Assembly (NCBI GenBank): GCA_038045705.1
Contig: JBBSXO010000005.1
Location: 21,136-85,135, forward strand
Source of the DNA: Nanobdellota archaeon
GTDB lineage: Archaea; Nanobdellota; Nanobdellia; Pacearchaeales; GW2011-AR1
Direction of reading: 5' to 3'
Length of the DNA stretch: 64,000 nt
The notes below the pieces were generated by a model. That model ran no database searches. It saw only the letters and a list, made by a program, of their open reading frames with translations, and was not told the origin of the DNA. Numbering within the stretch: the stretch's first letter is position 1; every line of letters begins with the position of its first letter. Below are positions 46,971 through 64,000 of this stretch, piece by piece. A program made the translations under genes and the position numbers.

Positions 46971-48380
46971 TTGTTTTCTATAGTATTGGATCTTGATTAT
47001 AGAAGCAGCGAAGGCGCAGAAATAGCACTTTTAGATAGAACTTTAGAAATGCTTGCTAGAACTGATAGGGGTCAGAGAAGAGTTGTTAGAGCATATGAAT
47101 TAGGAGAAATTAACGCTAAGCATGGAGCACTAAGAGAAATAAAAAATAATCAAGAAGTTAAAGATTATGTAAAATCCTTATTTGGTGTTAAAGGAAAGGA
47201 AGAATGGGAAGAGACTACTTTTTCTGGAATTAGAGATTTAGAGCATGCTGTTGGAGGTAGACAAAGAGATAGAGGCTTTTCTGATTTAGATTATGCTAGA
47301 TATTATTTTTTAAATTTAGGTGAAGAACTTGGGAGACTTTCTGAAAAGTTAAGCGAAGCTCCACATATAGAAGACAGATACTTAGCTGAACTGCTAGATA
47401 AGGCTAAATCTTTTGAAGGTAATAAATTATATACTGGTTCTAGAAAATTAATGGAGTTAGTCACTAAAATTAATGAATTAGGAAAGAAACCTACTAGAAA
47501 TTTCTTTAAAATAAGAAGAAATAAAAAAGAACAGAAGAGCTTAACTTTAGATTTAGTAAGCTCTTTCTTAAAGGGATCTGATGATAAAAGTATAGATGTA
47601 GCATACGATTCAATTGCAAGAATTGACGAACTTAATGCTTATGATAGCTATGCAGAGAGCTTACCTGTTGCTTCTTTGCCAACTGTAGTAGATTCTCCTA
47701 AACATTTTTTTAGAGCAACTAACTTAGTAAATGGAGTAACAGCTATAAAAAACAGAGATTATACTCCGAATGATGTAGAATTAGATGAAAATAGAATTGC
47801 ATTTCTAACAGGACCTAACACTGGCGGAAAGACTTCTTTAGTGAAATCTATTGTTTATGCGCAACTTCTTGCTCAAAAAGGTTGTTATGTGCCTGCAGAG
47901 TCTGCTACAGTAAGTGTAGCTGATAGAATATTTTTGTTTACAGGAGAACCTAACTCTATCCACGATGCTGAAGGCAGTTTTGGAAGAAATATGTCTCGTG
48001 CAAGAGAAATAGTCTTTGGGTCAACTCCTCGTTCTTTAGTTATAGTTGATGACTTAATAGAAGGGACTAGGCCACAGGAAAGGGACGTACATATTAGAAA
48101 TATTTTACAAGGATTATATCATAAAGAACCAACCGTTGTTTACATAACTCATGATGATTCCTTAGTGGATGATTTCGCTGAAGTTGGAGCTGGAGAAGGT
48201 GTAGAAATGGAATTTGATGGAACAAGACCTACATATAAACTTAAAAAAGGTATTGCTCGTAACAGCCATTCAGACTTAGTGGCCAGACGAGTTGGTTTAG
48301 ATAAAGATAGTATTGTAAAACATTTAATGGAAAATGGGCATATACAATCAGCAGATGAATTTGATATATTGAGAAAGTAA
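46971..48380 (+). CDS. MutS domain-V ATPase lacking the mismatch-recognition domain
   Basis: LTGPNTGGKTS, LAQKGCYVPAESA, SLVIVDDL, ITHD and TYKLKKG motifs. Confidence 0.8.
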   Translation: MFSIVLDLDYRSSEGAEIALLDRTLEMLARTDRGQRRVVRAYELGEINAKHGALREIKNNQEVKDYVKSLFGVKGKEEWEETTFSGIRDLEHAVGGRQRDRGFSDLDYARYYFLNLGEELGRLSEKLSEAPHIEDRYLAELLDKAKSFEGNKLYTGSRKLMELVTKINELGKKPTRNFFKIRRNKKEQKSLTLDLVSSFLKGSDDKSIDVAYDSIARIDELNAYDSYAESLPVASLPTVVDSPKHFFRATNLVNGVTAIKNRDYTPNDVELDENRIAFLTGPNTGGKTSLVKSIVYAQLLAQKGCYVPAESATVSVADRIFLFTGEPNSIHDAEGSFGRNMSRAREIVFGSTPRSLVIVDDLIEGTRPQERDVHIRNILQGLYHKEPTVVYITHDDSLVDDFAEVGAGEGVEMEFDGTRPTYKLKKGIARNSHSDLVARRVGLDKDSIVKHLMENGHIQSADEFDILRK

Positions 48381-48848: not shown

Positions 48849-49490
48849 ATGGATATTGAGACTTTAAACCCTTATGTCATTAGAATTTTGATTTCTGCTA
48901 GAGATCAGGATAGCATGAGCTCTATTGCAAAGAGAATAGGCTTATCTTATGGTTGGACCCATAAGTGGATTAGTGTATTAATCAAAGAGGGAGTATTCAA
49001 AGAAAAATGGAATGGAATAATATTGCAGGAGGATAATCAAAGTTATAAAAAAATAATGCAGTTCATCAAGAATACTATAAATCCAATTAATTTATACTAT
49101 TCAACATTACCTTTAATGGGAATATCTTATTCATTGACGCAAACTGATGCAGTTTATGTATGGACTAATGGAGGATATAATATTGCAAGATACAAAGAGT
49201 TTTATCCAATATTTATAAAAATTGAAAAGAAAGATTATCAAACATTTTTGTATTACTGTAATAAATTGGGATTAAATATTAAGGCTAAGGACGGGACTTT
49301 TTATGACCCTAAATTAGTTAAAAAATTAATCTCTGTGAAAAATGGAAAGTATGATGTGGACTCTTTAGAAGAAACCATCGATTTTATGAAGAATAATATT
49401 TATAATTTTGAACCTGCTTTAGAGATGATCGATGAAATGTATCATAAAAAGTTAGGATATGAATATAAAGAAGTAAGTTCATTATCATGA
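48849..49490 (+). CDS. N-terminal HTH protein, putative AbiEi-like antitoxin
   Basis: SMSSIAKRIGLSYGWTHKWISVLIKEG; overlaps the downstream nucleotidyltransferase gene. Confidence 0.6.
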   Translation: MDIETLNPYVIRILISARDQDSMSSIAKRIGLSYGWTHKWISVLIKEGVFKEKWNGIILQEDNQSYKKIMQFIKNTINPINLYYSTLPLMGISYSLTQTDAVYVWTNGGYNIARYKEFYPIFIKIEKKDYQTFLYYCNKLGLNIKAKDGTFYDPKLVKKLISVKNGKYDVDSLEETIDFMKNNIYNFEPALEMIDEMYHKKLGYEYKEVSSLS

Positions 49491-50158
49491 AGGAATTAAT
49501 AATTAAGGAAAACAATATTTTTGATATTTTGCAGAGATTTATCGATGCAAAATTAGATTTTGTAATTGTTGGGGGATATGCTGTTTCATCTTATAAGCAC
49601 CGATTCTCTGTTGATGCAGATATAGTTATTCAATCCAAAGACTTAGAAAATTTTGAGTTAATACTAAAAAAGGAAAAGTTCAAGAAGGGTTTTGAAAAAG
49701 ACCTAGATAATCCTTACTCTTCAAGATTTATGAGATATGAAAAAGATTCTGCAAGCATTGATTTGCTTATTGATGGTATCGCCTCAAGAACAACAAACGC
49801 TTCCTTTGGTTATAACCTTCTGCTTCAAAATTCATCAAAAAGAAAAGTAATAGGCATAGAAAGAGAAATTACAGTTATGGTTCCAAGTAAAGAATTATTA
49901 ATCATTATGAAGATCCATTCTGGAAGGTTAACTGATTTTAGAGATATTGCAGCTATAGCAAAAGAAACTAATCTTGAAATAATAAAGAAGTTAATGTTTA
50001 TTGGAGACTTAAAAGTATTACATGAGAATTTAGAGAAACTTAATCATGCAGTTCATGACAAAAACTTTATCGATTCATTTAAAGGAGTCTTCATAGAGAA
50101 AAAGTTTGATGTTGATTTAAAACAAGTAGAAAAAATAAGTCATTTAAAGGAAGGTTGA
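49487..50158 (+). CDS. Nucleotidyltransferase (AbiEii/DUF6036-like)
   Basis: VIVGGYAV...RFSVDADIVI...LIIMKIHSGRLTDFRDI. Confidence 0.8.
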   Translation: MKELIIKENNIFDILQRFIDAKLDFVIVGGYAVSSYKHRFSVDADIVIQSKDLENFELILKKEKFKKGFEKDLDNPYSSRFMRYEKDSASIDLLIDGIASRTTNASFGYNLLLQNSSKRKVIGIEREITVMVPSKELLIIMKIHSGRLTDFRDIAAIAKETNLEIIKKLMFIGDLKVLHENLEKLNHAVHDKNFIDSFKGVFIEKKFDVDLKQVEKISHLKEG

Positions 50159-50332: not shown

Positions 50333-50461
50333 TGCGGGAGGGAGGATTCGAACCTCCGAAGGCACTAAGCCACGAGATGGCTTACATCTCGCTTAGCTAC
50401 TCGCTCTAATGAGAGAGTGACGTCTTAAGTCTCGCGCATTTAACCGCTTTGCTACCCCCGC
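50333..50461 (-). tRNA. tRNA-Leu(TAA) with a 45-nt canonical-position intron (50379-50423)
   Basis: GCGGGGG/CTCCCGC acceptor, CGAGA/TCTCG anticodon stem, long variable arm, GGTTCGAATCC; bulge-helix-bulge CTTA-AGA / TAAG-CCA. Confidence 0.93.
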
Positions 50462-50617
50462 AATCGGCATATCTGTCCACTGCGCGGATTTCCCCGAGCA
50501 GTTCAGCTGATAGTATAAGAAGAGCAGAAGCGTTGCTGATGCTCATCTGTGACTGTCTGCTAACAGGCAAGACACACCGCAGGGGCAACACATGGAGGCT
50601 ATTTAACACTATCGAAC

Positions 50618-51820
50618 ATGCATGAGGTAAACAACACTGAGGACGAGAGAATACGACCAGTTGATGTAGTTGCGTCACTAGAGCGCGCGACCACTCGGTT
50701 TATGGCCAGGTCAGACATCAGTCAGGCCAACAAGGATCATGTCGCCAAGTTCTTGCGAGAAGCAGCACTTGGCAAGACCGTCGTGGGGCGCGCGAGAAAA
50801 CAGATCGGCCCGGAGCGACGCCATTTATACCTGATGCAACTGACTATTCTGATCGATTTCGTGGGAAAGAACCTCGACGAGGTTGTGATGTCCGATATGG
50901 AGAGGTTCGTTGAGGCTCTGGACGGCGACAAGATTCGTTCGCGCCGGCCACAGCGAAAGGGGCAGAAGCTGGTCGTGGAACCTAGGCCCTTGAGCAGGCG
51001 GTACTGCGCCGACATCAAGATCACCGTCCGAAAGTTTTACATGTGGCTCTGGGGTGGGAATCGGCGAGTGCCGGAACTCGTGGACTGGTTTGACACTTCC
51101 TTTGAACTAAAGGATGTGCCCGCGCTCACCGAGGCAGATGTTGGGCGCATGCTGGACCACTGCAGGACTGTGCAGCAGCGCGCGATCATTCAGGTCTTGT
51201 TCGACGGAGGACTGCGTCTGGGGGAGCTACTAAACGTTCGCCTACGGCATGTCTGGAGAAGAACGGTCGTGCCGAATGATCCAATGACGGTTTGTTATTT
51301 CGTGCGTGTGCCTTTCAGCAAGACTCTCCGTCGAACCGTCGTGCTCCCCATGCGCGACAGCACTCGTGCTCTCGGTCTGTGGCTCGAGAAACACCCCGGT
51401 CGACCAGTTGTGCTCCCCGACGGTACTCTCGACGCGGACGACTTGAGCCTGCAACTTTTCCCCATGACCGGAGAGGCGATCAGGCAGATGCTACGCAGAG
51501 TGGGTAAGTGTGCTCTCGGTCGCCGGGTGTATCCACATCTCATGCGCCACACCTCAGCCACATTCTGGAGCAACAAGGTTTCCTACTTCAAAATGTGCAA
51601 GCGCTTCGGTTGGACCATGGTCAGCAAGATGCCCCAGCGCTACATCGATCGAACTGGCGTTGATGAGGAGGAGATCGCCAACATCTATTTTGCCAAACAG
51701 AAGGGCGAGTCGCAACGAGGGGCAGACGAGCTTCTGATTGAAACGCCCGAGGTTCAGGCTGAGGTCAAGCCCGTCAAGGGATCGTTGCCGCGTCCGCAGT
51801 CCATGCGTTCCGCAAGCTAA
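50618..51820 (+). CDS. Tyrosine recombinase/integrase
   Basis: LFDGGLRLGELL (R), SKT (K), PHLMRH (HxxR), FGW and RY catalytic residues. Confidence 0.92.
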   Translation: MHEVNNTEDERIRPVDVVASLERATTRFMARSDISQANKDHVAKFLREAALGKTVVGRARKQIGPERRHLYLMQLTILIDFVGKNLDEVVMSDMERFVEALDGDKIRSRRPQRKGQKLVVEPRPLSRRYCADIKITVRKFYMWLWGGNRRVPELVDWFDTSFELKDVPALTEADVGRMLDHCRTVQQRAIIQVLFDGGLRLGELLNVRLRHVWRRTVVPNDPMTVCYFVRVPFSKTLRRTVVLPMRDSTRALGLWLEKHPGRPVVLPDGTLDADDLSLQLFPMTGEAIRQMLRRVGKCALGRRVYPHLMRHTSATFWSNKVSYFKMCKRFGWTMVSKMPQRYIDRTGVDEEEIANIYFAKQKGESQRGADELLIETPEVQAEVKPVKGSLPRPQSMRSAS

Positions 51821-52112
51821 GAACTGTGGCTAATGGTGCTGGCGGCCACTACCCAGTTGACTGAGAAATGCGGATCTGGTCAGTCTGCGTCGGCCTTTCT
51901 GGCGCAGCGGTGCTGGCGCATAGAGTGCCGCGTCGCGGCGCATGCGTGAGGTGACGTCGGTGCACGGAGGTTGTGACCGGCCAGCTGTTGCGTTGCACGG
52001 CCGATGACCTGAGTCGTGCGTTCTCGTTGCGCGTTCCGTGACGGGCGGTCGCGGCGCGCGCCAGCATTGGGATGTTCAAAGCCCGCCGGAAGAAGCGGGA
52101 AGGTGAGAGTTT

Positions 52113-52469
52113 TTAGGCAGTCTTTCGCGACAATCCAACAATCGACAGACACCCAACCAATCCAGCCAGAATCAACTCGCCGCGCCAGGTCATTAGGAGC
52201 CAGTTGCCAACGCAGCCACAGACGGCCGGCCGCACGACGATGGCGTGCCCTGTCCCTAAGAACGCAATCACGACCCCGACGAATAGCCCAAGGCGTCGAT
52301 ACCGACTCCAGCAAAGCAGCACGGCAGTTGCAGTTTCGAGAAGCGTGACTCCCCAATAAAGAGACTGTGAATACGAAACACCCACTGGGACACCGCCAAC
52401 AACTTTGGCGACGGCGACCGTGCCAAGCAATACCGCCAACACCAAAGGCACAACTATCCCTCTAGCCAT
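52113..52469 (-). CDS. MauE/DoxX-like membrane protein
   Basis: Several TMs with AVAK, LLE and CGCVG motifs; start MARGIVV at 52469 chosen to avoid overlap. Confidence 0.6.
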   Translation of the reverse strand: MARGIVVPLVLAVLLGTVAVAKVVGGVPVGVSYSQSLYWGVTLLETATAVLLCWSRYRRLGLFVGVVIAFLGTGHAIVVRPAVCGCVGNWLLMTWRGELILAGLVGCLSIVGLSRKTA

Positions 52470-52516
52470 AGCCTTACCATGGTTTGTTGTCCGACCGAGT
52501 CCACCGTTTGCTCCCG

Positions 52517-53119
52517 CTAGTCTATTGGCGGCATCGTTAGGGTGTAGCAGCTGAAATTGCAATCTCGGCAAATTGCCACAAGCTTCAGCTGGCACTCAGC
52601 TGCAGGTGGGCAAGCAGTGCCTACACAGGCAGCAAGGGAACGTGTCACTTTGCACTCACTCCATGTGTTGCACCCAGCTGCAGACGCCACAAGTGGGTCG
52701 CCGCTCTCTGTTGGCCCTACGAAGAACCCCCAGTCGGTACAAGTTGGGCCAGTGGTCGTACCGTCGAAGTTCCTTCTGGTATAGCAGTAGCTATCCGCGT
52801 GAGTAGTCGCATTTCCGCCACGGAACAATGGCATCGACACAGTCATTATGCAAGTAGGAGTCGACTCTATGCACTGGCGAAGTTCGTTCTCCTCTTCGCA
52901 AACACAATAACCGTCTCCAGTAGCATCAACCATGACGAAATCGTACAAGTCTCCGCCGTAGCAAGGCGGCGGGACGGCGCCAATGTCGGGTCCATAACCG
53001 TACTGCGGCTTGCACCCATACCACTCACAATCGGTATCGATCGGACTATCGACCGCCGCGCTTGCTGCGATCGAGAGAAACATTGGCACCAAGAAGACGC
53101 CGACGAACGATGAAGTCAT
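52517..53119 (-). CDS. Secreted Cys-rich protein
   Basis: Signal peptide and 17 Cys in the mature region. Confidence 0.65.
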   Translation of the reverse strand: MTSSFVGVFLVPMFLSIAASAAVDSPIDTDCEWYGCKPQYGYGPDIGAVPPPCYGGDLYDFVMVDATGDGYCVCEEENELRQCIESTPTCIMTVSMPLFRGGNATTHADSYCYTRRNFDGTTTGPTCTDWGFFVGPTESGDPLVASAAGCNTWSECKVTRSLAACVGTACPPAAECQLKLVAICRDCNFSCYTLTMPPID

Positions 53120-53143
53120 GAGAGAGTCCTTATTTCTTGTTGG

Positions 53144-53971
53144 TTACTTACCATCCCATGTAACGCGTCCCTGAATGTTGCTTAGTAGTTGTTTTGCTTC
53201 CTCAGACGTAATAGTGCCTTCACGACAGAACCATACTACAATCAAACCTAGCAGCTCTCGTCCCTTTTCATGCATTACCGCCTCTCCAAGTGAGCTTCCG
53301 GGCATCATATCGCGATTCGCCATATGCACTGTATCACCAATTGTCTGAATCATGTTGTAGCCACTAGCCTCTGGCGGCAACACGCCTGAGCGAAACCGTG
53401 TTCCGCGTGGCAGAGTGACGGTTGCAGTCCCGCTCTTAGCTCGGAGTTCGGCCATTTCCTTTGCGGCGATCTCATGTCGAACGCGCAAAATGTTTAGCAG
53501 CTCACGTTGCGGGCCACGGAGCAAACCCTCCAGCTCGCGCCTCTTGTCAGGGGGTAAGTAAACGTCGCGCGGGTTTAGCATTTCATGCCGGAACAGGCTA
53601 TTCGCTGTAACCGCTACTGCAGACGTGATGATATACCTAGTGAGAGGGTATCTCTGAACACGGATAGCCTGCCACTCCGCGTCCGATTCAGGACTCGGCG
53701 CATGCTCATTCGTACTCTGAGCATTTGGTTCGAAAGACTCTAAGCTGTCATAGTCTACTGTACTATTCGCGGAAGAGAGAACGGCGGTTGCAAGAGCTTC
53801 GGCATCGCCCGTACCTGACGTGGGCACGATTGCGTCTCCCGGAGTGACGACCAACGGCGTTGGCCGCGGTATTCTTGCAAGCCAGACACCAACAGCGATT
53901 CCTGAGAGCGCGACTAGCGCCAAAGCCCAGCGGTGCTTTTTCGAGGTAGCCAAGTTAACCTCTCGATGCAA
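53144..53971 (-). CDS. Hypothetical protein with N-terminal TM anchor
   Basis: 275-aa ORF, co-oriented with the Cys-rich and MauE-like genes. Confidence 0.6.
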   Translation of the reverse strand: MHREVNLATSKKHRWALALVALSGIAVGVWLARIPRPTPLVVTPGDAIVPTSGTGDAEALATAVLSSANSTVDYDSLESFEPNAQSTNEHAPSPESDAEWQAIRVQRYPLTRYIITSAVAVTANSLFRHEMLNPRDVYLPPDKRRELEGLLRGPQRELLNILRVRHEIAAKEMAELRAKSGTATVTLPRGTRFRSGVLPPEASGYNMIQTIGDTVHMANRDMMPGSSLGEAVMHEKGRELLGLIVVWFCREGTITSEEAKQLLSNIQGRVTWDGK

Positions 53972-54755
53972 GCTGGCCGTGAGCCAGCAGAAGAAGTCGA
54001 GTGGAGCAACTGCAAGAGACGGTAACGGGTGTTGCGCTAGAAGTCAATAGAGAAGCAGAATCTTGCAGCTAGCAACCGGGTCTGGATCTCACCCTGGAAC
54101 AAGCGACCGAGCTTGCTGCCACCGGCAGTGGTGGCCGCGAGTGGCCGCGGTGACATGTTGTTAATTTGCTACTTGTACAAGACATCGCCTCTCCGTAACG
54201 GATGGAGGATGCTCATCCCAGTATTCGAGGAGAGGCGGGCCGCAGCTCTGGAAGCCGCGGAACGTAGGAAGCCCCGTCGGGTGATTCACGCAACCTCACC
54301 GGAAGGACACGATCCAGGGCCGCCTCGTACCAGGCCGCCAGTTCCTCGCGCCGCGCTGGGCGCTCGCCAAGTTCGATTCTTCGCATGGCGACACCTGCCC
54401 GCCTCAGCGGCGCGATCCAGGAACAGCGGCTCACCCATGCCTGGCAGACGACCCTGTTCCACGGCAACCACACCCATGCCGAACCGGTGGACAAACCGCC
54501 CCGTCCAAAGGAGCCCAGCAGCAACGTTCGCCAGCAATACCACGAGAAGTGATCGGAGCGTTCTCCCACACCATACGAGCTTCCATCCCGAAAAGCGAAG
54601 TACTGGTAGCTCAAGCCTTGAGCGCCGAGATACGCGACGGTATCGAACGGAGATCTTGAGATACGTGCAACCAATCGCGACGGCTACAGACACAGCTAAT
54701 GGGCAACCTACTGGCACTTCCATACGAGTCCTTCCTTGCGTTCGGTTGCCACTAT

Positions 54756-55094
54756 CTAGAGCGTATAGACCAGTCTTGGTCTGGAGTCCGCAGGATCGCA
54801 GACAGCTTCATACAAGTAGATGACTGGTTGCCGGTTGGCATCGAGTATCTGATACCTACGAAGTTGCGGTGGCAGGTCCTGACGGCGAATACGTCGACCA
54901 TCGTGTTCGAGCGATTTGAGTGCAGTGGCCACAGCAGACAGCGACTCCCCCAGCGCTACGCTGATTTGACATGTGGACTGAGGACCCTCATCGAGTAAAT
55001 ACGCCACCACACGATCCTCCAACGCTCCTACGTCGTGGATAGAAGGGGAGTCCCCGCCATAAAGCCCGCCTATGCTCATGTCTGTTCTCAACAC
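54756..55094 (-). CDS. Small winged-helix protein
   Basis: RVVAYLLDEGPQSTCQISVALGESLSAVATALKSLEHDG. Confidence 0.5.
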   Translation of the reverse strand: MLRTDMSIGGLYGGDSPSIHDVGALEDRVVAYLLDEGPQSTCQISVALGESLSAVATALKSLEHDGRRIRRQDLPPQLRRYQILDANRQPVIYLYEAVCDPADSRPRLVYTL

Positions 55095-55484
55095 CTGAGA
55101 GATTAAGAAGGTGCGCCACTACTACCTTGTAGTGCCTGGATTCTATTTATCCAATTTTCGTTTGAGTCAGTCTTTGGGAGTAAGCTCGACAACCCTCGAA
55201 AACGGGAAGAACGTTATCAATCTAAACGACCCGAGTTTGGCAAGCAACCACAATTCTCGATTGAGCCATGACGACCATCGGTATGGCAGCTACTTGTGAA
55301 CACCGTCAGCGTGGCCAATGGTATTATCATCGAGGTAGGAATCCTCCTGCACCGGCGAACGACTGGGTCGCGCACCCCGGGTCCCTTCTTCGCCAGCTTT
55401 TGCCAAGTGAACTCCATCGTCGAGCTGAACGGCCTGAACGAGAACCGTACTCCGTAGGCCACATGGGAACGGCATTGGCGACTT

Positions 55485-56150
55485 TCACTTTGGCGGTGGC
55501 ACAGTTTGACCAAAGGTAAGTGAATCGATCCCAAGGAGTTTGCGGGAGAACTCCTCCTGAATCGCTGCATGAGTCCTTCTCCTCGTTCTCTCAAACAATG
55601 CGAGAAGTGTTGGTGCAACCGTGTGTGTTGGCACCACCTGAGTGGACTCCATGGTCTCAAGCGGTCCTCGCCATGACTGTCGGACGGCAAGTAGCTCCAA
55701 GTCTTCGGCCACAACAATCCCAAGGCCAAGAAGATTGCTACGTACATTAGTGAATGCGTCCCAAACGGCGGCTTCGATCCTTAGCCAGTCGTTGGCGTTG
55801 CGATCATCTTCTCCGCGGACCCTGGATAGGAGTTGATCACGGGTGCTACTCGTCACTCCGGAATACGTGTCAGCGTTTTCCATGGCCTTCGCAAGCCAAC
55901 TGTCGATTTCGAATCTCCTTTTGATCGTCCCTTGAAGCGTAATCGTCTCCGCCCTCGCAGCTTCCTGTTCGAGGTTCGCGCTGATGCATGCTGCGGCCGT
56001 AAACCCGACCATGGCGACCAAGGTAGCCCATCCCTTTCCATTCAGCTTGTACCTGGTTTTACCATCGTAGCGCCGTATTTGCGTCTTGCAAGTTAGCCAC
56101 TCGGCTGCGAGGCCACAGAGAGCTACGGCGATTACGAAAACCACAGTCAC
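55485..56150 (-). CDS. Hypothetical protein with two N-terminal TMs
   Basis: Two hydrophobic segments followed by a helical domain. Confidence 0.55.
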   Translation of the reverse strand: MTVVFVIAVALCGLAAEWLTCKTQIRRYDGKTRYKLNGKGWATLVAMVGFTAAACISANLEQEAARAETITLQGTIKRRFEIDSWLAKAMENADTYSGVTSSTRDQLLSRVRGEDDRNANDWLRIEAAVWDAFTNVRSNLLGLGIVVAEDLELLAVRQSWRGPLETMESTQVVPTHTVAPTLLALFERTRRRTHAAIQEEFSRKLLGIDSLTFGQTVPPPK

Positions 56151-56355
56151 ATTTACTGCTCCGAGTTAGCTGTACTAGTTCACTGCAGGCATGTAGAGTC
56201 TTGAGGTCCAACACAAGTAAATGCTCACTGCCCTATGTCTGGAGGTAAACCGCCACACGACGATGGCGCTCCTGGTATCGGTTCAGGGGACGCTGGGGAA
56301 CGCTTTAGCTGACTCCCAAGCGCGCAATATTCTAACCAACGAAGGTTGAAGCCGG

Positions 56356-57345
56356 CTAGCGTATGATCGTGGCTTGGCTTGATGCGATACCCATCGCAAA
56401 CAATGGTGAGAACGTAATGCACTGTGTTACGGCTGACAGTCCCGAAGCTGGCCCTGAATACGTGACTGGAAGTCCGGCCACACCTCCTGTGAAGAATAGG
56501 AGCGGATCGTTGACGTCGAAGTTCACCAAGATACCTGGAAGGCTTGGGGAGTTTGGGACAGCGGGACGAAAGCTCACCGCGACGAAGTGTAACGCTTGGG
56601 CGTCATTAGAATTGATCATAATTGTGGCAACTCCAATCCCGGGAACGGTGGCTAGGCAATACGCAGATCCGATGGCTCCGTTTACGTAGAGACGTGCCTC
56701 GGGCTTGTTCTCCTGGTAACTTGGCAATAGTCCACCGGTTACCCTGACAGTGTACTCCTCGATGTCACCGAAGAAAGAACCGGACGGTGGTGGAGGCCCA
56801 GGGTGACCGAACCCAACCCTTATGCGAGTCTCCGCAACGGCATTGCTAGGAACTCGAATACTTGCGCTGAAGAACACGACCTGGTTGACGCTCACGAGGT
56901 TCAAGTCGTAGCGCTCACCAGCGTCGTCGAAGTACCGATTGCCATTCCAATCGACGTACGCCCGTGCTTGTCCGATGAGCCCATTGTTGAAGACACCAAG
57001 GGTTAGGAGCACTGTCTGGCAGGGAACCACTATAGCTGTCTGGTTAAGGAAGCTTGAGAAGCCAGAAAACCCCGGTGGACACAGGGGGCTGGGTATCGTT
57101 GTGTCATTCACGACACTAGCGAAAGACACCAAGTTTACGTACGAGCGAAGAAACCCAAGATGACACACGTCACCTACCGTTGTCGGATAGGCCTCCAGGT
57201 TGGTATTGACGCAGAGGTTGACCGTGGGGCACTGGGTTATGAGCGGCCGGCTGAATGGGATTACCATCAGCAAAAACAACACGCGTGAAGACATCGCCAT
57301 GGGACGTGTGGTATGAGTTGGTAGTGTGGTTCGAGGTGGTCGCAT
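56356..57345 (-). CDS. Secreted GEVED-domain protein
   Basis: AYVDWNGNRYFDDAGE...TRIRV...GDIEEYTV matches the GEVED pattern. Confidence 0.7.
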   Translation of the reverse strand: MRPPRTTLPTHTTRPMAMSSRVLFLLMVIPFSRPLITQCPTVNLCVNTNLEAYPTTVGDVCHLGFLRSYVNLVSFASVVNDTTIPSPLCPPGFSGFSSFLNQTAIVVPCQTVLLTLGVFNNGLIGQARAYVDWNGNRYFDDAGERYDLNLVSVNQVVFFSASIRVPSNAVAETRIRVGFGHPGPPPPSGSFFGDIEEYTVRVTGGLLPSYQENKPEARLYVNGAIGSAYCLATVPGIGVATIMINSNDAQALHFVAVSFRPAVPNSPSLPGILVNFDVNDPLLFFTGGVAGLPVTYSGPASGLSAVTQCITFSPLFAMGIASSQATIIR

Positions 57346-57490
57346 GCGTCAGTGCCGAGTCAGCATTCGCATGAGTTCCGAATTCACAAAGTAGCGGCTG
57401 ATTGAATGTTTCTGACACAAACTGCTGGATCAATACGGATACTGCCTCTGTGGTTTCATGATTGATGGCTTTCTTGACTGAATGCCTATT

Positions 57491-58360
57491 CTATTCTAGA
57501 AACTCAAGCGCTTCCTTCAACAGTTTTGCGACCTTGTCCTTCTCGATCTGGGGGGCGTCCTTTGTAATCGAGAACGGATAGACACGCAGACCATCCTTGC
57601 TCTTCTTGATGTAGAGCTTCTTGCGACCAGGTTGCCGCTTGCCTGCCTCCTGACGGAGGACACGCTTCAACTGCTTAGCGCTGAGAGTCTCCGACTCGAT
57701 ACGCTTCTTCCACTCCGAAGGACTCTCGACGCCAAAGTCGTGCAGCGCCTTGGCGTGCGCCATCGTGACGATCTTGCCGTCGAGGCATTTCTGTAGCGCG
57801 CTCGAGAAGCTCAACAGCTCCAGATAGCGATCAACCTGCTTTTGGGAGAGGCCGAAGAGTTCCTGGAGATCGTTCTTCTTCAGACCCTGCCTTTGCGCCA
57901 ACCAGAGGGCATTGGCTCTATCCACCGGTGCCAGATTCTTGCGCACGACATTCTTCGTGAACGCGACCCGAAGCGCCTGGTTGTCGGCCATCTCGTGCAC
58001 GACAGCCTGAATCGAGGACCAGCCCAGTTCCTGCGCGGCCCTGCAGCGTCTGAAGCCATCGATGATCCGATACGGCTTCGGGCCGAGGAGATCGACGGGT
58101 TGCTCGAGTCCATCGTGCTCCAGGCTGCGCCGCACATCTGCAACGGCCATGGAAACGCGGCACTGAAACGTCGTGTTCGACGAGTCGATGTCTGCAAGGC
58201 TGATGGTCTGGTAGGCACCATCGAGTGCTTTGGGAGGCGTGATGCGTTCCTCCAACTTCGACGCTCCATCGCTTGATGTGTCTACGGCATGCCGGCGCCG
58301 GTCGGCTCTGCGTTTCGGCCCGGCATCAGAGTCTCCTTCGGGTTGCATTCCGCTCTCCAT
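57491..58360 (-). CDS. ParB/Spo0J-like protein
   Basis: SLEHDGLEQPV, YRIIDGFRRCRAA..LGW, NVVRKNL, then HTH. Confidence 0.85.
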   Translation of the reverse strand: MESGMQPEGDSDAGPKRRADRRRHAVDTSSDGASKLEERITPPKALDGAYQTISLADIDSSNTTFQCRVSMAVADVRRSLEHDGLEQPVDLLGPKPYRIIDGFRRCRAAQELGWSSIQAVVHEMADNQALRVAFTKNVVRKNLAPVDRANALWLAQRQGLKKNDLQELFGLSQKQVDRYLELLSFSSALQKCLDGKIVTMAHAKALHDFGVESPSEWKKRIESETLSAKQLKRVLRQEAGKRQPGRKKLYIKKSKDGLRVYPFSITKDAPQIEKDKVAKLLKEALEFLE

Positions 58361-58679
58361 GCGTAGTCTCCACCGGGGATGGCGTGATGTCGGACACCGT
58401 GTCTTCCAGACCCTTACTCTAGTGCTGGTGGCAGCTTAGCGACGGCGCACCCCGAAATCCGTTGCTCTGGCTTCCACTACAACGCGCAGGCAGCCGACTT
58501 ATGTATCCCTGGGGGTAGCGACTGTCAACAACGTTCTTTGCCCGACAGGGCGCATGACAAGACACAAGTGTCTGGGTCCGCGCATGGGACACACGACAGG
58601 CATGGAACTACAGTCTGCTTGGCCGGCCAGTTGATCGTCGACGACCTTCGGCCCGCAGCAGCTCAGCCCCGACGATCTT

Positions 58680-59030
58680 TGGAGGAGATCCACGTCAAGA
58701 CGCTCGACCGCGACGACGAGGTCAAGGCCGCGATCATCCTGTTCTTGAGCATGCTCCATGAGAAGCAGCGGCGGCTTGGTTTGCACCCCGAGTGTCGCAT
58801 CCAGCTCGGTCGCGAGAACGCCGGCGTCCGCAAAGGCAAGGTCGACCACGAGTTGGTCGCCGACGCCCTCGAACGGTGGCACCTCGCATGACGGGGCACC
58901 CCCCGCCGCGATGCGACGTCGAGCCGCTGCGCTAGATCCTGCATCGCACGCTCCCTTGCTGGAACTACACCATCTCACCGGCGATCGCTTCGGCATGATC
59001 GCGCGAAGTAGTTCTTGGTCTGCCCCCTGA
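58680..59030 (+). pseudogene. Internally deleted ISAzo13-like transposase remnant
   Basis: DEVKAAIILFLSMLHEKQRRL and, in another frame, HRTLPCWNYTISP resemble the two ends of ISAzo13-type transposases (from recall). Confidence 0.45.
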
Positions 59031-59133
59031 CAGCTGACAGATGGGAAGACTGTTGGAGCTGACGGCCCCGCGCGGTAGCCTCTGCTCAACCCCTCCGAGA
59101 AGCACCAACAAGAAGCGAGGTCAGAGGGTTATT

Positions 59134-60135
59134 GTGACGTTACTTGGAACGCAACTCGACGATGGCTGGGTGGTGACCCGGGAAGTGGTGAGGAGCATCA
59201 AAGCTACCGGCGGGTGCTTCTCTAAGTCCTACATCGTGACGAGGAACGGGAAGGAAGCGTTCATGAAGGCGTTAGACTATATGCAGGCTCTGCAAAGCGT
59301 AGACCCGGCGACGCTCTTGCATACGCTGACCCAAGAGTTTCTTTTTGAGAAAGGTATTCTACGAGAGTGCGAGGCTCGTCGGATGCGAAGAGTAGTTCGG
59401 CAGATTGGTCACGGGATCCTGAAGCTCACACTTGGTGGCTTACCAATCACGGTGCAGTACTTGATACTTGAGAAGGCTGACGACGATCTGCGGCATACCC
59501 TGGACGGAATGACCGCCTCCGTAAGGGCGCGGGCGTTGCAGCAGGTTGCGATTGGGTTGACGCAGTTGCACAGAATTGGTGTCGCGCATCAGGACATCAA
59601 GCCATCCAATGTACTCCTATTTCGAGGAGACGGTGCAAAGGTTGGTGATCTTGGGTGCGCGTTTCAGAAAGGCATCGCACGTGTTCGCGACCAATACAGA
59701 GTAGCGGGCGATCCGCGATATGCACCTCCAGAATTATTGTATGGGTTAGGGTCCCAGGACTATCGGTTGCGAAGACTGGGCTGTGACGCGTACCATTTGG
59801 GTAGTCTAATATTTTTAATGTGGTCGAAGCTGTCGCTGACTAGCGATATTCAAGGCCGCCTCGAACCAAGATTCAGGTGGCAAAAATGGAACGGTCAATA
59901 CGTGGACGTGCTTCCTGAGTTGCAGTCGGCGTTCGAGGATGCTCTCCGCTCATTCGCGACGTTACTACCACCATACGCTTTGGAGTTGGTAGAGTTTGTG
60001 CGTGAGTTGTGCGACCCGGACCCAATGCGACGTAAACTTACGCAGAGTGGCAGCGACATCCCCTTGGAAGTGTACGTTAGCAAGCTTGACAGAGTGGCAA
60101 AGGTCTGCGAGTGGAGGGAGCGCAAGGGTCCATGA
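59134..60135 (+). CDS. Hanks-type Ser/Thr protein kinase
   Basis: TGGCFSKSY, AFMKALD, HQDIKPSN, DLG and YAPPE motifs; GTG at 59134 with upstream GAGGG preferred over 59041. Confidence 0.9.
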   Translation: MTLLGTQLDDGWVVTREVVRSIKATGGCFSKSYIVTRNGKEAFMKALDYMQALQSVDPATLLHTLTQEFLFEKGILRECEARRMRRVVRQIGHGILKLTLGGLPITVQYLILEKADDDLRHTLDGMTASVRARALQQVAIGLTQLHRIGVAHQDIKPSNVLLFRGDGAKVGDLGCAFQKGIARVRDQYRVAGDPRYAPPELLYGLGSQDYRLRRLGCDAYHLGSLIFLMWSKLSLTSDIQGRLEPRFRWQKWNGQYVDVLPELQSAFEDALRSFATLLPPYALELVEFVRELCDPDPMRRKLTQSGSDIPLEVYVSKLDRVAKVCEWRERKGP

Positions 60136-61625
60136 CTGTCTATGCAAAGGATGACGATAGGCGCTTGATTCCGCGATGGCACTGGTTGCAAAGCGAGCCT
60201 GCAAGGCTTGAGCAGCATTTCGGAGGAGACCAGGGTGCAGGTGAACCTGATCCTGCCTTAGCAGCTCTGCTTGAGGAATCACTTGTGGACTGGGTTGCGC
60301 AGAAGGGCGATGTGGTGGCTGGCGAGATATGCTCGGCGGCAATCTTGAGCGGCCGGTTGGAGCTGGCTCGCGATGCAGCAATCGCGCTCAAGGCGGGGAG
60401 CCCGATAGAGAGTGGCATCTATCATGTGGCTGCCGAGGTGCTCGGACAAGCCACAAAGGGTGAGTCCCTAGGAGCAGAAGGCATCAGGGTTGTTATCGGG
60501 CGCCTGCGAGCGCTGCTACGTGATGGGGCTCGGGATCCGATACGGTGGACAGACTTGTCTCGAGCCTTTGCGATCATAGGTAAGCTGAAGTCTGCCAAGC
60601 GGGCGATGTTAGTTGCTACTGACCTGGCGAGTGAGAGCCGCGCCATTGTACGAGCGGCTTCTAGGCTTCTGATCCACGTGGACGAGGCCGACAGAGCGCA
60701 TGATGTACTGATGCGGTCACGACGTATTGTGGTTGACCCATGGGTCATGGCGGCCGAGATTGCTGTGACAAATCTGATGGGCCGGCCATCCGAGTACGCA
60801 AAGAACGCAAGGAAGGTAATCAAGTCCGGGAGGTATGGCGATAGAGATCTCGCCGAACTCCGCGTTGCCCTGGGATCGCAGGAAATATGGTTTGGGAATG
60901 CAAAGCTGGGCAAGCGACTATTGCGCGACGCACTGGTTGCGCCTACCGAAAACGCGATCGCACAGGTTGCATGGTTCATGAGGCGCGAGTATCTGGCCCT
61001 TGGTGTATTTGATGGAGACTCCCTTGGAAGCGCGGAAGCGGACGCCTGGGCGAAGCGGCAGCGAAAAGAGTGGGCGGATTGTCTGCTTGCCTGTGACCGG
61101 TGGTGGAGCATTGAGCCATTCTCGAGCAGGCCATCTGAGTTGGCATCTTACATAGCTTCAACTGTTAGTGGAGATCCCGATCGGTGCGTCGAATACGCGC
61201 GTAGAGGGCTCATCGCCAATCCTGAGAGTGTCGTGTTATGGAATAACTTGGCCGTCGGCTACGCTGAGCGTGGGCTTGTCCGACAAGCAGTGGAGTGTTG
61301 GCGGCGAGCGAGCGCGTTGGACCGAGAAGATGCCTTCCGGGTCACGCTGCAGGCCACGAGAGGCTTGATCGCCTTCCGTGAAGGGCGGTATGCAGAGGGG
61401 CGCAAATTGTATGAGGACGCTGTGGCTTTGGCGAGAAAGGAGGGGAAACTGGAGGTGATGGCAACTTTGCACCTCTTGCGAGAGGAACAGCGGTGTGGGG
61501 GTGCGCCTACGAGTTTGCTTGCTGTCGCGAGGGAGGCGACCAAATCTCCTGATGTTGTTGTAGCAACGATGGCCACCCGTCTGTTGAGTGCGGAAGAGCT
61601 AACGAGGAGTCCTGGGGGTGAGTGA
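60132..61625 (+). CDS. TPR-containing helical protein coupled to the kinase
   Basis: ATGA overlap with the kinase stop; C-terminal TPRs (LWNNLAVGYAERG, ATRGLIAFREGRYAEGRKLYEDA). Confidence 0.8.
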   Translation: MTVYAKDDDRRLIPRWHWLQSEPARLEQHFGGDQGAGEPDPALAALLEESLVDWVAQKGDVVAGEICSAAILSGRLELARDAAIALKAGSPIESGIYHVAAEVLGQATKGESLGAEGIRVVIGRLRALLRDGARDPIRWTDLSRAFAIIGKLKSAKRAMLVATDLASESRAIVRAASRLLIHVDEADRAHDVLMRSRRIVVDPWVMAAEIAVTNLMGRPSEYAKNARKVIKSGRYGDRDLAELRVALGSQEIWFGNAKLGKRLLRDALVAPTENAIAQVAWFMRREYLALGVFDGDSLGSAEADAWAKRQRKEWADCLLACDRWWSIEPFSSRPSELASYIASTVSGDPDRCVEYARRGLIANPESVVLWNNLAVGYAERGLVRQAVECWRRASALDREDAFRVTLQATRGLIAFREGRYAEGRKLYEDAVALARKEGKLEVMATLHLLREEQRCGGAPTSLLAVAREATKSPDVVVATMATRLLSAEELTRSPGGE

Positions 61626-62073
61626 GGCTGCGAGATTCGTGGCGCCGTAGTTATCGTGCGCCGCGTTCCTTGAGACGGGGGCGCGCCATTCCCCGTGAGC
61701 CTCGGGGAACACCTCAAGTCCGGCCAGTCGGGAACACCTGAAAACCGGCCAGTGGTGAGAGTGGTCGCGGACGTTGACGTCGCCTGGCACATGGTGTCGC
61801 TCTGTGACCTTCCGGTGAGGGTGCGTAGCCCGTTTTTTCTGAGCGTTGCGGTCAGCGGTTGGGCTAGGACGAGGGCGTGGTTGCGACCGCGGCCAGCTTG
61901 TAGTTCCAGGGCAGCCAGGCCGGAGTCGATTTGGCGCTGCGGCGCGGCTTGTCCCGATCGATACGCTTCGTTACTCTTCGTCTGAGTCGGTCGCGCTGGC
62001 CCGACTCTGCACCTCTCTCATTCTCATCGGCTCGACCGCCCAGCGCGGTCTTACCCAAAAACCAATAGGACAA

Positions 62074-62994
62074 ATGCAACCAAACAACGTTCGTGAATAC
62101 GAGAACCTCCGTTCAGAACTCGACAAACTTCGCGACTGTATCAACACATATGTTAGCTTTGTCTTGGGGGGATCAGGAGCGGCCTTGGTTGGATTGCTCG
62201 CAGCCATAGGACTGAAAGAGGCCTGGTTTGGAGTATGCCTCGGCGCGCTGGCACTGGCATTGGTGATCACAATTATTCAGAATGTCCTTATGTACAAGTT
62301 CCTCAGCCACAATCGTTATGCTGGATATTGCAAATTGCTATCACAAGAATGGTATGAGGCGAAATCCTTGGACGTTTTCCTTTGGGAGCCCTCCCTAGAG
62401 CAGCTCCGCTATTCTGATTTTGACAACACAGAGGCTGTCGATCGCTGTCGAACAACGGTCATAAAGGGTGTCTCTGGCAGGGCTCTATCGCGCGCGCTTC
62501 TTCGTTTCGGAGGCGACGAACCATCCGCGGACAAGAAGAAGCGACGGCGCGGAGCATGGATAGTATTTTGGGCAATTAGGGGGCATACAACGTCCGCTTC
62601 CTGGGGGTACCCTGTGTACGTAGTTGCGACCTTGTTTATTGTAACGCTACTATTCTGGGCAGTCCATGCCGCGTTCGCCTTCATGTCCTTACAATGGTAT
62701 CTTGGCGTATTACTGCTCTTCTTAAGTGCAGTCCTGGTAGGCATGATGTGGGCGACGCACTTCGGACGGCTTTCTGCCCTTATGGGTCGGAGCAGATCCA
62801 TAGATGCTTACTGTTGGAAGTTCATGTATTTCCGTTTTGCTATCCTTACGTCCCTTGGCGCACGCTCGTACACAATCGTCGCTGGCAAACAACCTTGGCA
62901 GTACCTGCACGCCTATCGCGCAGACAGGCGGTGGATAAGGCAGAGTCTAGCATACAAACTTCGCAACTATCCAGGGCGAGTGCGGCCACGATAG
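62074..62994 (+). CDS. Four-TM membrane protein
   Basis: AGGA-N3-ATG start; EYENLRSEL helix, then two TM hairpins separated by a soluble region. Confidence 0.7.
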   Translation: MQPNNVREYENLRSELDKLRDCINTYVSFVLGGSGAALVGLLAAIGLKEAWFGVCLGALALALVITIIQNVLMYKFLSHNRYAGYCKLLSQEWYEAKSLDVFLWEPSLEQLRYSDFDNTEAVDRCRTTVIKGVSGRALSRALLRFGGDEPSADKKKRRRGAWIVFWAIRGHTTSASWGYPVYVVATLFIVTLLFWAVHAAFAFMSLQWYLGVLLLFLSAVLVGMMWATHFGRLSALMGRSRSIDAYCWKFMYFRFAILTSLGARSYTIVAGKQPWQYLHAYRADRRWIRQSLAYKLRNYPGRVRPR

Positions 62995-63076
62995 CAAATC
63001 GCTCGGGCTGATTTATGAATTGGAAGAGAAGGGCGGACAGACCGTAACGGCGTCGTAAAGTCCTTCACGCCCGACT

Positions 63077-63277
63077 TCAAGGCACCCTTCTCGGTCGTGG
63101 GCGCCTGGGCGCCTCCTCTGGATCGGCGACAGCGATCTCGACGTCGAGGCAGTCCTCGCTGCAGAAGAGTTTGCTCTCGAGGTTGATGAAGTCTCTCGTG
63201 CCAAGGACACCTTTGGCGACCTGGTAGCAGTCGTCACCCACGTGGATCTCCCTGTCGCAGATTGCACAGCTACTCAT
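63077..63277 (-). CDS. Small Cys4 zinc-finger protein (TRASH/YHS-like)
   Basis: CAIC...FCSEDC; start overlaps the ECF sigma stop. Confidence 0.6.
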   Translation of the reverse strand: MSSCAICDREIHVGDDCYQVAKGVLGTRDFINLESKLFCSEDCLDVEIAVADPEEAPRRPRPRRVP

Positions 63278-63765
63278 GCGTCACCTCGTTCACGGAGAAG
63301 ACCACGGAGAGCCTGGCGGGCTCGAGCAACACGGGACTTCATGACTCCGGTTGTCGTCCTCTGGCGCTCAGCCAGCTCCCTGCACGATAGTCCCTCCAGG
63401 TAGTAGCCCGTCGCAGCATCTGCCAGGCACTGGCTGAGTCCTCCGATACGTTCGAGAACGCGTTGATGCGTCTCCCTCGTCGACGCCATCGCCCATGGTT
63501 CCAGACTCGAAAGCGGTTGATGGTCGTCGACGTCGTAGCTTCTCACGCTCGTACTGACGCGAGCGAAGGCAGGTCTGATCGCCACGCGCTTGGCGATCGT
63601 CCAGAGCAACGCCACTGGCTCGCCCACTCGACGGGTGGATCCGCTTACGTAGCGAATGGCCTCGCAGAAGGCCTCCTGGACAACATCGTCGGCGCTGGCC
63701 CGGGGGAAAGAGTACCTGACGCGGTAAAGAATGAGGTCGTAGTGCCTCGCGAAGTCTGCTTCCAT
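63274..63765 (-). CDS. ECF-type RNA polymerase sigma factor
   Basis: ADDVVQEAF (region 2); YYLEGLSCRELAE...GVMKSRVARARQALR (region 4). Confidence 0.85.
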   Translation of the reverse strand: MEADFARHYDLILYRVRYSFPRASADDVVQEAFCEAIRYVSGSTRRVGEPVALLWTIAKRVAIRPAFARVSTSVRSYDVDDHQPLSSLEPWAMASTRETHQRVLERIGGLSQCLADAATGYYLEGLSCRELAERQRTTTGVMKSRVARARQALRGLLRERGDA

Positions 63766-64000
63766 ATCCTTGTGGAAGCAAGACTTATAGAATAGGCTTC
63801 AGGTGAAATGGCGTGGGTCAGATTCAGATTGCCGCCAGCAGGCCTCGGATACCCCAGCACTCAGGTACAGATGGTGCGAGATCCTGCGAGACCACCCGGA
63901 CCTGGCGCTGATCCTCCGGGCGTGGCCCGCGCCTACCGGAGGTCACTCCGCGACGGGATGGTGGCGATGGTGAATTCGGCGGTGACGTGAGGGATGACGA

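Follow-up and report, generated by a model that had tools for sequence, protein, structure and literature searches.

PD-T4-6 and Stk2 are single-gene Ser/Thr-kinase defences that act by abortive infection. Among two-gene systems, BcTir/BcTpr of Bacillus cereus has been reported as anti-phage in the accessible part of the preprint describing it (bioRxiv 10.1101/2023.05.26.542521), and DS-6 of DefensePredictor, which we group here with the HipA modules, needs its catalytic residue for defence according to the portion of the article at hand (PMC13092281). Closer still is PDC-M71, a gene pair listed in the PADLOC catalogue (PADLOC-DB v2.0.0) since 2023. The PDCs are 145 "guilt-by-embedding" candidates drawn from genes embedded in BREX, DISARM, type I restriction-modification (RM) and Hma loci, and in the available part of their preprint the authors call them untested (Payne et al., bioRxiv 10.1101/2024.01.29.577857). 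Here we analyzed the final 64 kb (64,000 nt, hereafter the window) of contig JBBSXO010000005.1 (C5), part of a 0.84-Mb, 10-contig assembly of a Nanobdellota archaeon. It carries two overlapping genes, one for a stand-alone Ser/Thr kinase and one for a tetratricopeptide-repeat (TPR) protein, which belong by profile match to PDC-M71. In our judgement this pair is, with somewhat better than even probability, a self-contained and horizontally mobile conflict module, most likely anti-phage, in which the TPR partner gates the kinase. The nomination of the pair as PDC-M71 was already known. New here are the finding that conservation is confined to the pair, a non-RD signature across the kinase family, a binding model that passes its controls and places the partner on the docking lobe of the kinase, a groove of invariant residues in the partner, which points to a conserved ligand, a moderate association with defence genes that was tested against control sites, and the unusual carrier and host.

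The gene pair, its family and its conservation

The pair comprises the following features; the evidence for each is given in brackets.

59134..60135, + strand: PDC-M71A, a stand-alone Hanks-type Ser/Thr kinase of 333 amino acids (aa), non-RD (HQD), with DLG in place of DFG (open reading frame [ORF], Pfam, PADLOC, AlphaFold2 [AF2])
60132..61625, + strand: PDC-M71B, an all-helical TPR solenoid of 497 aa, the predicted kinase-binding partner (ORF, PADLOC, Pfam, AF2)
60132..60135, + strand: ATGA start/stop overlap, translational coupling (sequence)

In the ORF listing of the window the two genes appear as + strand frames 59041-60135 and 60111-61625. The kinase start that a first-pass annotation, made from the letters alone, had placed at 59134 was retained: this GTG is the better start because GAGGG lies 6 nt upstream and because it coincides with the beginning of the PADLOC profile and of the homologues. 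The overlap it had described between the kinase and a helical protein of about 500 aa also stands, since the partner ATG at 60132 overlaps the kinase stop TGA at 60133-60135; the 497-aa form was returned by the gene caller as well. Every motif it had pointed out could be located, HQD from 59587 and DLG from 59647 in the kinase (with APPE from 59722), and RRLIPRW (60159-60179), PTENAIAQVAW (60942-60974) and EPFSSRP (61113-61133) in the partner. Scanning of 58300-62100 for promoters and terminators gave no more sites than shuffled sequence did. A short tandem repeat closely follows the partner stop, at 61705-61753; its two 24-nt units, GGGAACACCTCAAGTCCGGCCAGT and GGGAACACCTGAAAACCGGCCAGT, are spaced with a period of 25 and agree at 21 of 24 positions.

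Searched against PADLOC-DB v2.0.0, the kinase matched PDC-M71A with an E-value of 1.9e-89 (298.5 bits; residues 31-357 of the long ORF on profile positions 9-346 of 352), and the partner matched PDC-M71B (PDLC04781) at 1.1e-91 over profile positions 1-474 of 515, and PDLC04782 at 5.9e-44. The next kinase models matched the catalytic core only: PD-T4-6 at 2.1e-14 (residues 139-260), mad6, MkoA, and Stk2 at 3.1e-7. The two genes also have the arrangement listed for PDC-M71, with A and B adjacent on one strand and A first. We therefore assign the pair, on these profile matches, to the candidate family PDC-M71. The first-pass annotation had not recognised it as a named system and had stated that a match to a described one would take away its novelty; given two matches of near full length, that claim of novelty falls.

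To assess conservation, we kept 80 loci from the 164 of 174 confirmed pattern matches, in 185,579 species genomes, that encode a relative of the partner. All 80 are bacterial and come from many phyla. A match to the kinase was found by tblastn directly upstream of the partner in 74 of them; of the other six, L011 is decayed and the remaining five lie on contigs that end less than 140 nt upstream. In all 71 clustered pairs the kinase precedes the partner on one strand. With ORFs taken at their longest, the spacing was between -53 and +13 in 67 of these 71 related pairs, with the -4 overlap itself in 24. Conservation of the pair, which had been proposed as a check, is thus borne out in bacterial genomes. 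No third gene recurs, the next largest family being present in only 4 of the 80 loci. Around the pair in the window, neither the 382-aa ORF downstream (61846-62994) nor a 196-aa ORF upstream had a Pfam or PADLOC match, and neither of two further upstream genes, for a GEVED-domain protein (56356-57345, - strand) and a ParB-N/helix-turn-helix (HTH) protein (57491-58360, - strand), recurs beside the pair elsewhere. Because the pair is conserved, no third gene recurs and the surroundings vary, we regard the module as consisting of two genes.

Relatives of the partner are numerous and mostly distant from this copy. A word-indexed search returned 35 of them, the best at 60% identity and the others at no more than 43%, and a profile search of 1.84 billion representatives returned 2,486 clusters (50% identity) at E<=1e-30, the best 150 of which contain proteins of 465-657 aa matched end to end. 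The kinase signature HQD[LVI]KPSN matched at least 601 stretches of metagenome contigs, of which at least 480 were confirmed. By these counts of sequence matches PDC-M71 is common in environmental bacteria. By contrast, the genome described here is the sole one with a match to the PDC-M71B profile among 401 sampled from the host phylum. The partner is also encoded on 3 of 72,556 plasmids, and the copy on a Deinococcus plasmid, annotated as "protein kinase" and "hypothetical protein", lies a few kb from Pycsar genes.

The two proteins and their predicted complex

Pkinase (PF00069) is the sole Pfam domain of the kinase ORF (56.8 bits against a cut-off of 31.7, E 2.9e-15). The Gly-rich loop, the VAIK Lys, the alpha-C Glu, the catalytic Asp and Asn, the DFG Asp and the APE motif are all present. 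Across 60 kinases of the family the VAIK Lys, alpha-C Glu, H-Q-D-x-K-P-S-N, D-L-G, GD..YAPPE, subdomain IX Asp and subdomain XI Arg are each kept in 93-100%, and the residue before the catalytic Asp is Gln in 56 and Leu in 4. As HQD replaces HRD, the enzyme falls in the non-RD subclass while staying within the Hanks-type family. Its AF2 model has a bilobal kinase fold (pLDDT 93.6, pTM 0.92), for which Foldseek gave ERK5, CLK2/3 and IRAK4 as the nearest folds (E ~1e-12); the nearest solved relatives by sequence are PknB and PknA (~1e-14). We could not assign it to a specific kinase subfamily, since both the sequence profile search and Foldseek returned generic kinases only. The first-pass annotation had described a soluble kinase with no sensor or transmembrane domain, and this description fits: Pfam finds the kinase domain alone, and the peak Kyte-Doolittle mean over 19 residues (1.45 in the kinase, 1.30 in the partner) indicates no membrane-like segment in either protein. 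Judged by these sequence features, the product is a catalytically competent, soluble Hanks-type Ser/Thr kinase. Non-RD kinases do not depend on activation-loop phosphorylation, which fits control of this kinase by a protein partner.

In the partner, Pfam recognises TPR families only, the best being TPR_2 (40.3 bits against a cut-off of 27), and confines them to the C-terminal third, where C-terminal TPRs had been proposed. The AlphaFold model extends that picture, as in it the entire chain forms one solenoid, made up of 27 helices (pLDDT 87.9, pTM 0.81). Foldseek returned only generic TPR superhelices for it (OGT, BBS4, APC3; TM ~0.3-0.4). Among 33 sequences 19 columns are invariant, and these cluster in an N-terminal peptide (R..P.W) and in the mid-solenoid, where they comprise DPW 202-204, EL 242-243, P271/N274/A277/Q278, EA 302-303, W324 and FS 330-331. 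The most conserved stretch is residues 201-285 (mean column identity 0.58), and conservation is lowest in two loops (0.26-0.31) and in the C-terminal 57 residues (0.35).

Co-folding of the two proteins had also been proposed as a check, and the complex model passed its controls, with an ipSAE of 0.80 (runs of 0.78, 0.80 and 0.82) against 0.00 for the best of three controls. Of 157 solved complexes 116 reach the ipSAE mark, as do 2 of 215 mismatched pairs; these figures are a rough guide only, own alignments having been used. The runs agree in at least 80% of contacts, and the pLDDT of the partner is at least 86. In the model, residues 19-202 of the partner meet kinase residues 120-124, 157-158, 192-195, 228-277, 294 and 299; of these, 157-158 belong to the catalytic loop, 192-195 to the P+1 loop, and 228-277 to the end of alpha-F, alpha-G and the next helix (alpha-H). 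The model thus supports binding of the N-terminal half of the partner to the C-lobe of the kinase, on its substrate-docking face. The contacted face would be the one at which protein substrates and pseudosubstrate inhibitors usually dock. The partner residue closest to the catalytic loop is a Val, not a Ser or Thr. We know of no solved complex of this kind, and a Foldseek search with the partner found no solved complex like the modelled one, so that it seems unlikely that the model recalls a known complex. From this predicted docking on the substrate-docking face we infer that the partner gates the kinase. The complex model fits the suggestion of the first-pass annotation, in which the TPR protein has the role of sensor or inhibitor and the kinase that of effector. 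The most conserved parts of the partner are unlike a fast-evolving phage sensor.

Neighbouring genes, gene decay and possible roles

We compared the genes beside the pair with genes at arbitrary sites. Neighbours were the two nearest ORFs of at least 150 aa on each side of the pair at 37 loci (L003-L040) of 79, which gave 131 of 269 ORFs; the control comprised 126 ORFs at 40 sites placed at round-number coordinates in 10 pair-carrying genomes. At E<=1e-10, 34/131 ORFs beside the pair and 15/126 control ORFs matched PADLOC models (one-sided Fisher p 0.003), and at E<=1e-40 the counts were 20/131 and 3/126 (p 0.0002). Counted by site, there were matches at 18/37 against 13/40 at E<=1e-10 (p 0.11) and at 14/37 against 3/40 at E<=1e-40 (p 0.0014). 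Two reservations tell against a strong interpretation: the site-level contrast is weak at the threshold set initially, and the stronger figures rest on an E<=1e-40 cut-off picked after the data had been seen and, for the ORF counts, on ORFs that within one locus are non-independent. Enrichment near defence genes, another of the proposed checks, thus came out positive, and on these matches the association appears real but moderate.

The matches near the pair include RM genes of type I (L029, L032), type IIG (L004, L010, L014) and type III (L013, L031), HmaA (L008), HmaB (L020), PtuA (L010) and AbiE (L021). L029 also has PD-T4-3 with an OLD/Gabija-like ATPase, L035 a Pycsar cyclase (PycC), and L031 a CBASS E2 together with PDC-M32A; PDC-S35, PDC-S41 and PDC-S15 are further matches beside the pair. 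Most of the control matches came from the mad1, mad2, mad3 and mad8 models, which matched 9/126 control ORFs at E<=1e-10. The genes hit by these four models at arbitrary sites are ordinary ABC-ATPase, methylase and HTH genes. As arbitrary sites are hit too, a raw match to one of these models should not be taken for a sign of defence.

These data also bear on a plainer interpretation, namely that the pair is an ordinary signalling unit in which a regulatory Ser/Thr kinase works with a TPR scaffold to control some cellular process and has no role in conflict. Bacterial signalling makes wide use of Hanks-type kinases and TPR scaffolds. The solved proteins closest to this kinase are generic too (PknB and PknA at ~1e-14; ERK5, CLK and IRAK4 by fold), and the Deinococcus plasmid copy adjoins a two-component system. 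A role of this sort is nevertheless hard to reconcile with a patchy spread across many phyla with neighbours that are never the same, with the enrichment of strong defence-gene matches beside the pair, or with genes that decay often and are carried by 1 of 401 genomes of the host phylum, and we consider it quite improbable.

The decay of the two genes was examined at the 72 judgeable loci found through the partner. Both genes were intact in 63, only the kinase was broken in 7 (two 1.2-kb insertions, four frameshifts and one truncation), both were broken in 2, and only the partner was broken in none. The loci with a kinase split by a ~1.2-kb insertion beside an intact partner are L008 (5698-7956) and L058 (1734-3906). 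A toxin-antitoxin-like addiction module, in which the kinase would be a growth-arresting toxin and the TPR protein its antitoxin and which would stabilise mobile elements without any sensing of phage, could account for the ratio of 7 to 0, and carriage on mobile DNA and the modelled position of the partner over the substrate-docking face of the kinase agree with it. However, a reciprocal set did not reproduce the ratio. Among 80 metagenome loci fetched through the kinase signature, 51 had room downstream; 44 of these had both genes intact, 3 had a stop in the kinase and an intact partner, 1 had a stop in the partner and an intact kinase (L125), 1 was doubtful in both genes (L191) and 2 lacked the partner. 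In one of the last two (L144) an IS66 transposase lies directly 3′ of an apparently intact M71A kinase, in the place of the partner; in the other (L141) the kinase diverges at its C-terminus and the next gene is beta-propeller-like. We therefore rejected the asymmetry as evidence for a toxin and attribute it mostly to ascertainment, because the first loci had been chosen by their similarity to the partner and the kinase-found set differs. Moreover, the partner has no DNA-binding domain with which to autoregulate, Pfam giving TPR families only, and its 497 aa and invariant motifs outside the interface far exceed what a simple antitoxin needs. Pure addiction thus appears unlikely; in any case, defence and addiction are not mutually exclusive.

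The carriage of the pair on an integrative element here and on three plasmids could also mean that it is counter-defence cargo, with a mobile element's kinase disarming, by phosphorylation, the defences of its host or else competitors. A precedent is the phage T7 kinase, which disarms defences according to the accessible part of a 2026 Nature paper. The partner is, however, encoded in none of 50,697 phage records, and several copies lie within or beside chromosomal RM and Hma loci and not in recognisable elements. This role is highly improbable in our view.

Several points weigh against a conflict module gated by its partner, in addition to the statistical reservations given above. The absence from phage records, while neutral for defence, offers no link to prophages. 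The island that carries the pair has no BREX, DISARM, type I RM or Hma gene, PADLOC having matched a methylase fragment only. In the main texts that were searched, no test of PDC-M71 is reported, and a soil-virome survey merely lists its name. Other PDCs have fared unevenly in the accessible parts of two reports: 4 of 8 candidates protected E. coli in one (PMC12881386), and PDC-M63AB and PDC-S04 gave no protection in the other (PMC12409345). Within the proteins, the invariant groove motifs of the partner fall outside the modelled kinase interface; judged by its column conservation, the partner is unlike a fast-evolving phage sensor, and the conserved mid-solenoid suits a conserved ligand better. 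Orphan kinases such as that of L144, and the stopped partner of L125, indicate that an unguarded kinase is not always lethal. Finally, the host is archaeal and all related loci are listed as bacterial, which makes the function of the pair in this particular genome doubtful.

We nevertheless favour a conflict module. The proposal of a candidate defence system made in the first-pass annotation is retained, except for its novelty, in view of the conserved coupled pair, the defence-rich neighbours, the PADLOC nomination and the modelled binding of the partner. Mobility is indicated by the variable flanks, the three plasmid copies and the integrase-bounded island. In the resting cell, the partner would gate the kinase, either by covering its docking face or by selecting what gains access to that face. 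A signal of infection or of some other invading element may then be received by the partner through its free middle and C-terminal TPRs, upon which the kinase would phosphorylate host or invader proteins and stop the infection, possibly at the cost of the cell. In the present small archaeal genome the module is carried as cargo by a GC-rich element of 27.6 kb that is integrated at tRNA-Leu. This turns the PDC-M71 catalogue entry into a concrete hypothesis, with residues to mutate, a kinase face that the partner should cover and a groove that would read the signal. If true, the two-protein design of kinase and TPR protein would put sensing and phosphorylation on separate polypeptides; the kinase defences otherwise met in this analysis (PD-T4-6, Stk2) are single proteins.

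The island, its host and relation to known systems

The pair lies in a GC-rich island that begins beside a tRNA gene and continues from C5 into a second contig (C6; L002 coordinates refer to it). Its main features are listed here.

50333..50461, - strand: tRNA-Leu(UAA) with a 48-nt insert in the anticodon loop; its first 11 nt are the left att core GCTACCCCCGC (Rfam tRNA, 47 bits, E 2.1e-7)
50462..64000, no strand: left 13.5 kb of the island, which goes on in C6 to L002 14073 (GC jump, contig overlap)
50618..51820, + strand: tyrosine integrase at the left end of the island (Pfam Phage_integrase, 2.1e-8)
63274-63765: ECF-sigma-like protein, island cargo
L002 1713-2453: cyclodipeptide synthase, island cargo on C6
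L002 7522-11526: DUF4062-NB-ARC-TPR STAND NTPase of 1334 aa, island cargo on C6

The GC content of the window is about 0.30 up to position 50,000 and then 0.52-0.61 to the end. Elsewhere in the assembly, GC-rich DNA extends for more than 1 kb only at the start of C6, where it fills the first 14 kb (L002 56-14073), and the last 55 nt of C5 are the first 55 nt of C6. The whole island thus measures 27,557 bp at about 57% GC, in a 0.84-Mb genome of 32% GC. The 11-mer GCTACCCCCGC occurs at 50451-50461 and again at the drop in GC (L002 14074-14084). ARAGORN had called a 74-nt tRNA-Glu(ctc) at 50333-50406; we regard this as a partial misreading, as Rfam fits a class II tRNA with anticodon UAA over 50333-50461. 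By its size and place the 48-nt insert in the anticodon loop is probably of the archaeal kind.

The integrase at 50618-51820 agrees with the integrase-headed island that had been described from the letters alone. It has 115 homologues at E<=1e-20. The nearest, at 72-69% identity, are unnamed, and those with a name include relatives from the planctomycete Fontivita pretiosa (57%), a Woesearchaeota archaeon (50%) and a Phycisphaerales metagenome-assembled genome (49%). Relatives of at most 42% identity are present in 70 of 401 genomes of the host phylum (68 of 399 without the unpublished G248 and G401). Two of these within the same phylum, in L111 (G165:C21:84785-88666) and L110, likewise sit at sharp GC steps, from 0.54-0.58 to 0.36-0.39, so that GC-discordant elements may recur in these small archaea. 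Besides the integrase, the C5 part of the island carries the GEVED-domain and ParB-like proteins and the PDC-M71 pair, and the C6 part also encodes a sigma-70 region-4 HTH protein and a methylase fragment. Beyond the att site, in host DNA, are a gene for an ATPase with MutS domain V only (46971-48380; weak mad8/LmuB-like matches) and an AbiEi/AbiEii-like pair (48849-49490 and 49487-50158; DUF6036 at 8.5e-7, AbiEii at 3.2e-4), so that the tRNA site borders host defence-like genes.

A 25-point difference in GC at the border could also arise by misassembly, with GC-rich DNA of another organism linked to the archaeal contig by way of the conserved tRNA T-arm, in which case the pair would not be archaeal. 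The bacterial listing of all related loci and the planctomycete origin of the nearest named integrase relative (57%) would suit such a join. We searched public runs for the junction and found at least half of its words in 8 of them, from two studies, 4 of which were examined as k=31 contigs; no RNA run was listed among those with the junction. None of the k=31 contigs of the 4 runs spans 50344-50378, the high-depth and many-branched tRNA T-arm, and all break there, which speaks for a false join. On the other hand, the low-GC flank and the island were both present in 4 of the 4 examined runs, with depths of 11.5 for the flank and 7.3 for the island in one (X1) and of 49 and 26.5 in another (X5). 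One independent contig contains the 5′ half of the tRNA with its intron and runs unbranched into the integrase and beyond, while another public-run contig has an intron-less relative of the tRNA in AT-rich DNA. Low-GC DNA flanks the GC-rich DNA at both ends (C5 and C6 being joined by the 55-nt overlap), the same 11-mer, equal to the first 11 nt of the tRNA, stands at both borders, the right border lacks any long repeat by which an assembler might be misled, and related integrases are found in 70 of the 401 genomes of the phylum. The GC borders on both sides, the att repeat and the independent contigs together favour integration. We consider an artefact decidedly unlikely, and a true integration in part of the population very probable.

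The assembly has a completeness of 91.5% and a contamination of 0.45%. We take the host to be an archaeon because TATA-binding protein is present and the bacterial ribosomal protein L20 is absent; small-subunit rRNA was not found in the assembly. By its gene content the island cargo looks bacterial, which makes the island a candidate for recent transfer from a bacterium to an archaeon. A 57%-GC island with bacterial-type cargo in a 32%-GC genome would, if true, provide a clean case in which defence genes passed recently across domains to a DPANN-type archaeon. The boldest form of our reading, which we think possible yet rather unlikely, combines this transfer with a new immune mechanism. In it, a permanently competent non-RD kinase would be held at its docking lobe by the N-terminal half of the TPR protein, and the invariant central groove (DPW, PTENAIAQ, PFSSRP) would read a conserved signal of infection, not a variable phage protein, and thereby release or redirect the kinase. 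The present copy would have crossed recently from bacteria, as part of a whole defence island on a planctomycete-like element, into the tRNA-Leu gene of a DPANN-type archaeon.

How far the pair resembles described systems differs from one to the next. With PD-T4-6 and Stk2 it shares the kinase superfamily and presumably the effector logic. Those two are single proteins with extra domains of their own, whereas the kinase here has an obligatory separate TPR partner, and its match to PD-T4-6 covers the core only and is about 75 orders of magnitude weaker than that to M71A. In HipA modules (HipBA; DS-6) the kinase effector is kept in check by a partner that binds to it directly, and the complex model predicts such binding for our pair. 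HipA has, however, a different kinase fold, and the family is absent among the Pfam matches of our kinase at E<=1; the partners of HipA and DS-6, as far as the available descriptions go, are DNA-binding or DUF3037/DUF1829 proteins and not TPR solenoids. BcTir/BcTpr, in the accessible part of its description, has the same layout of an effector gene and a separate gene for a TPR protein in one operon, but its effector is a TIR domain where ours is a kinase, and the likeness is one of description, not of sequence. STAND/Avs NTPases have in common with the partner a long TPR solenoid as the candidate ligand-binding part; unlike them, the kinase-TPR pair has no NTPase domain. As for PDC-M71 itself, this copy is at most 60% identical to any partner protein found, resides in an archaeal genome and, in contrast to the setting in which the family was discovered, is not embedded in BREX, DISARM, type I RM or Hma. 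Such embedding is how PDC-M71 was found, not a rule of membership, and the pair shares with the family both profile matches near end to end and the gene order, strand and adjacency seen in 71 of 71 related pairs.

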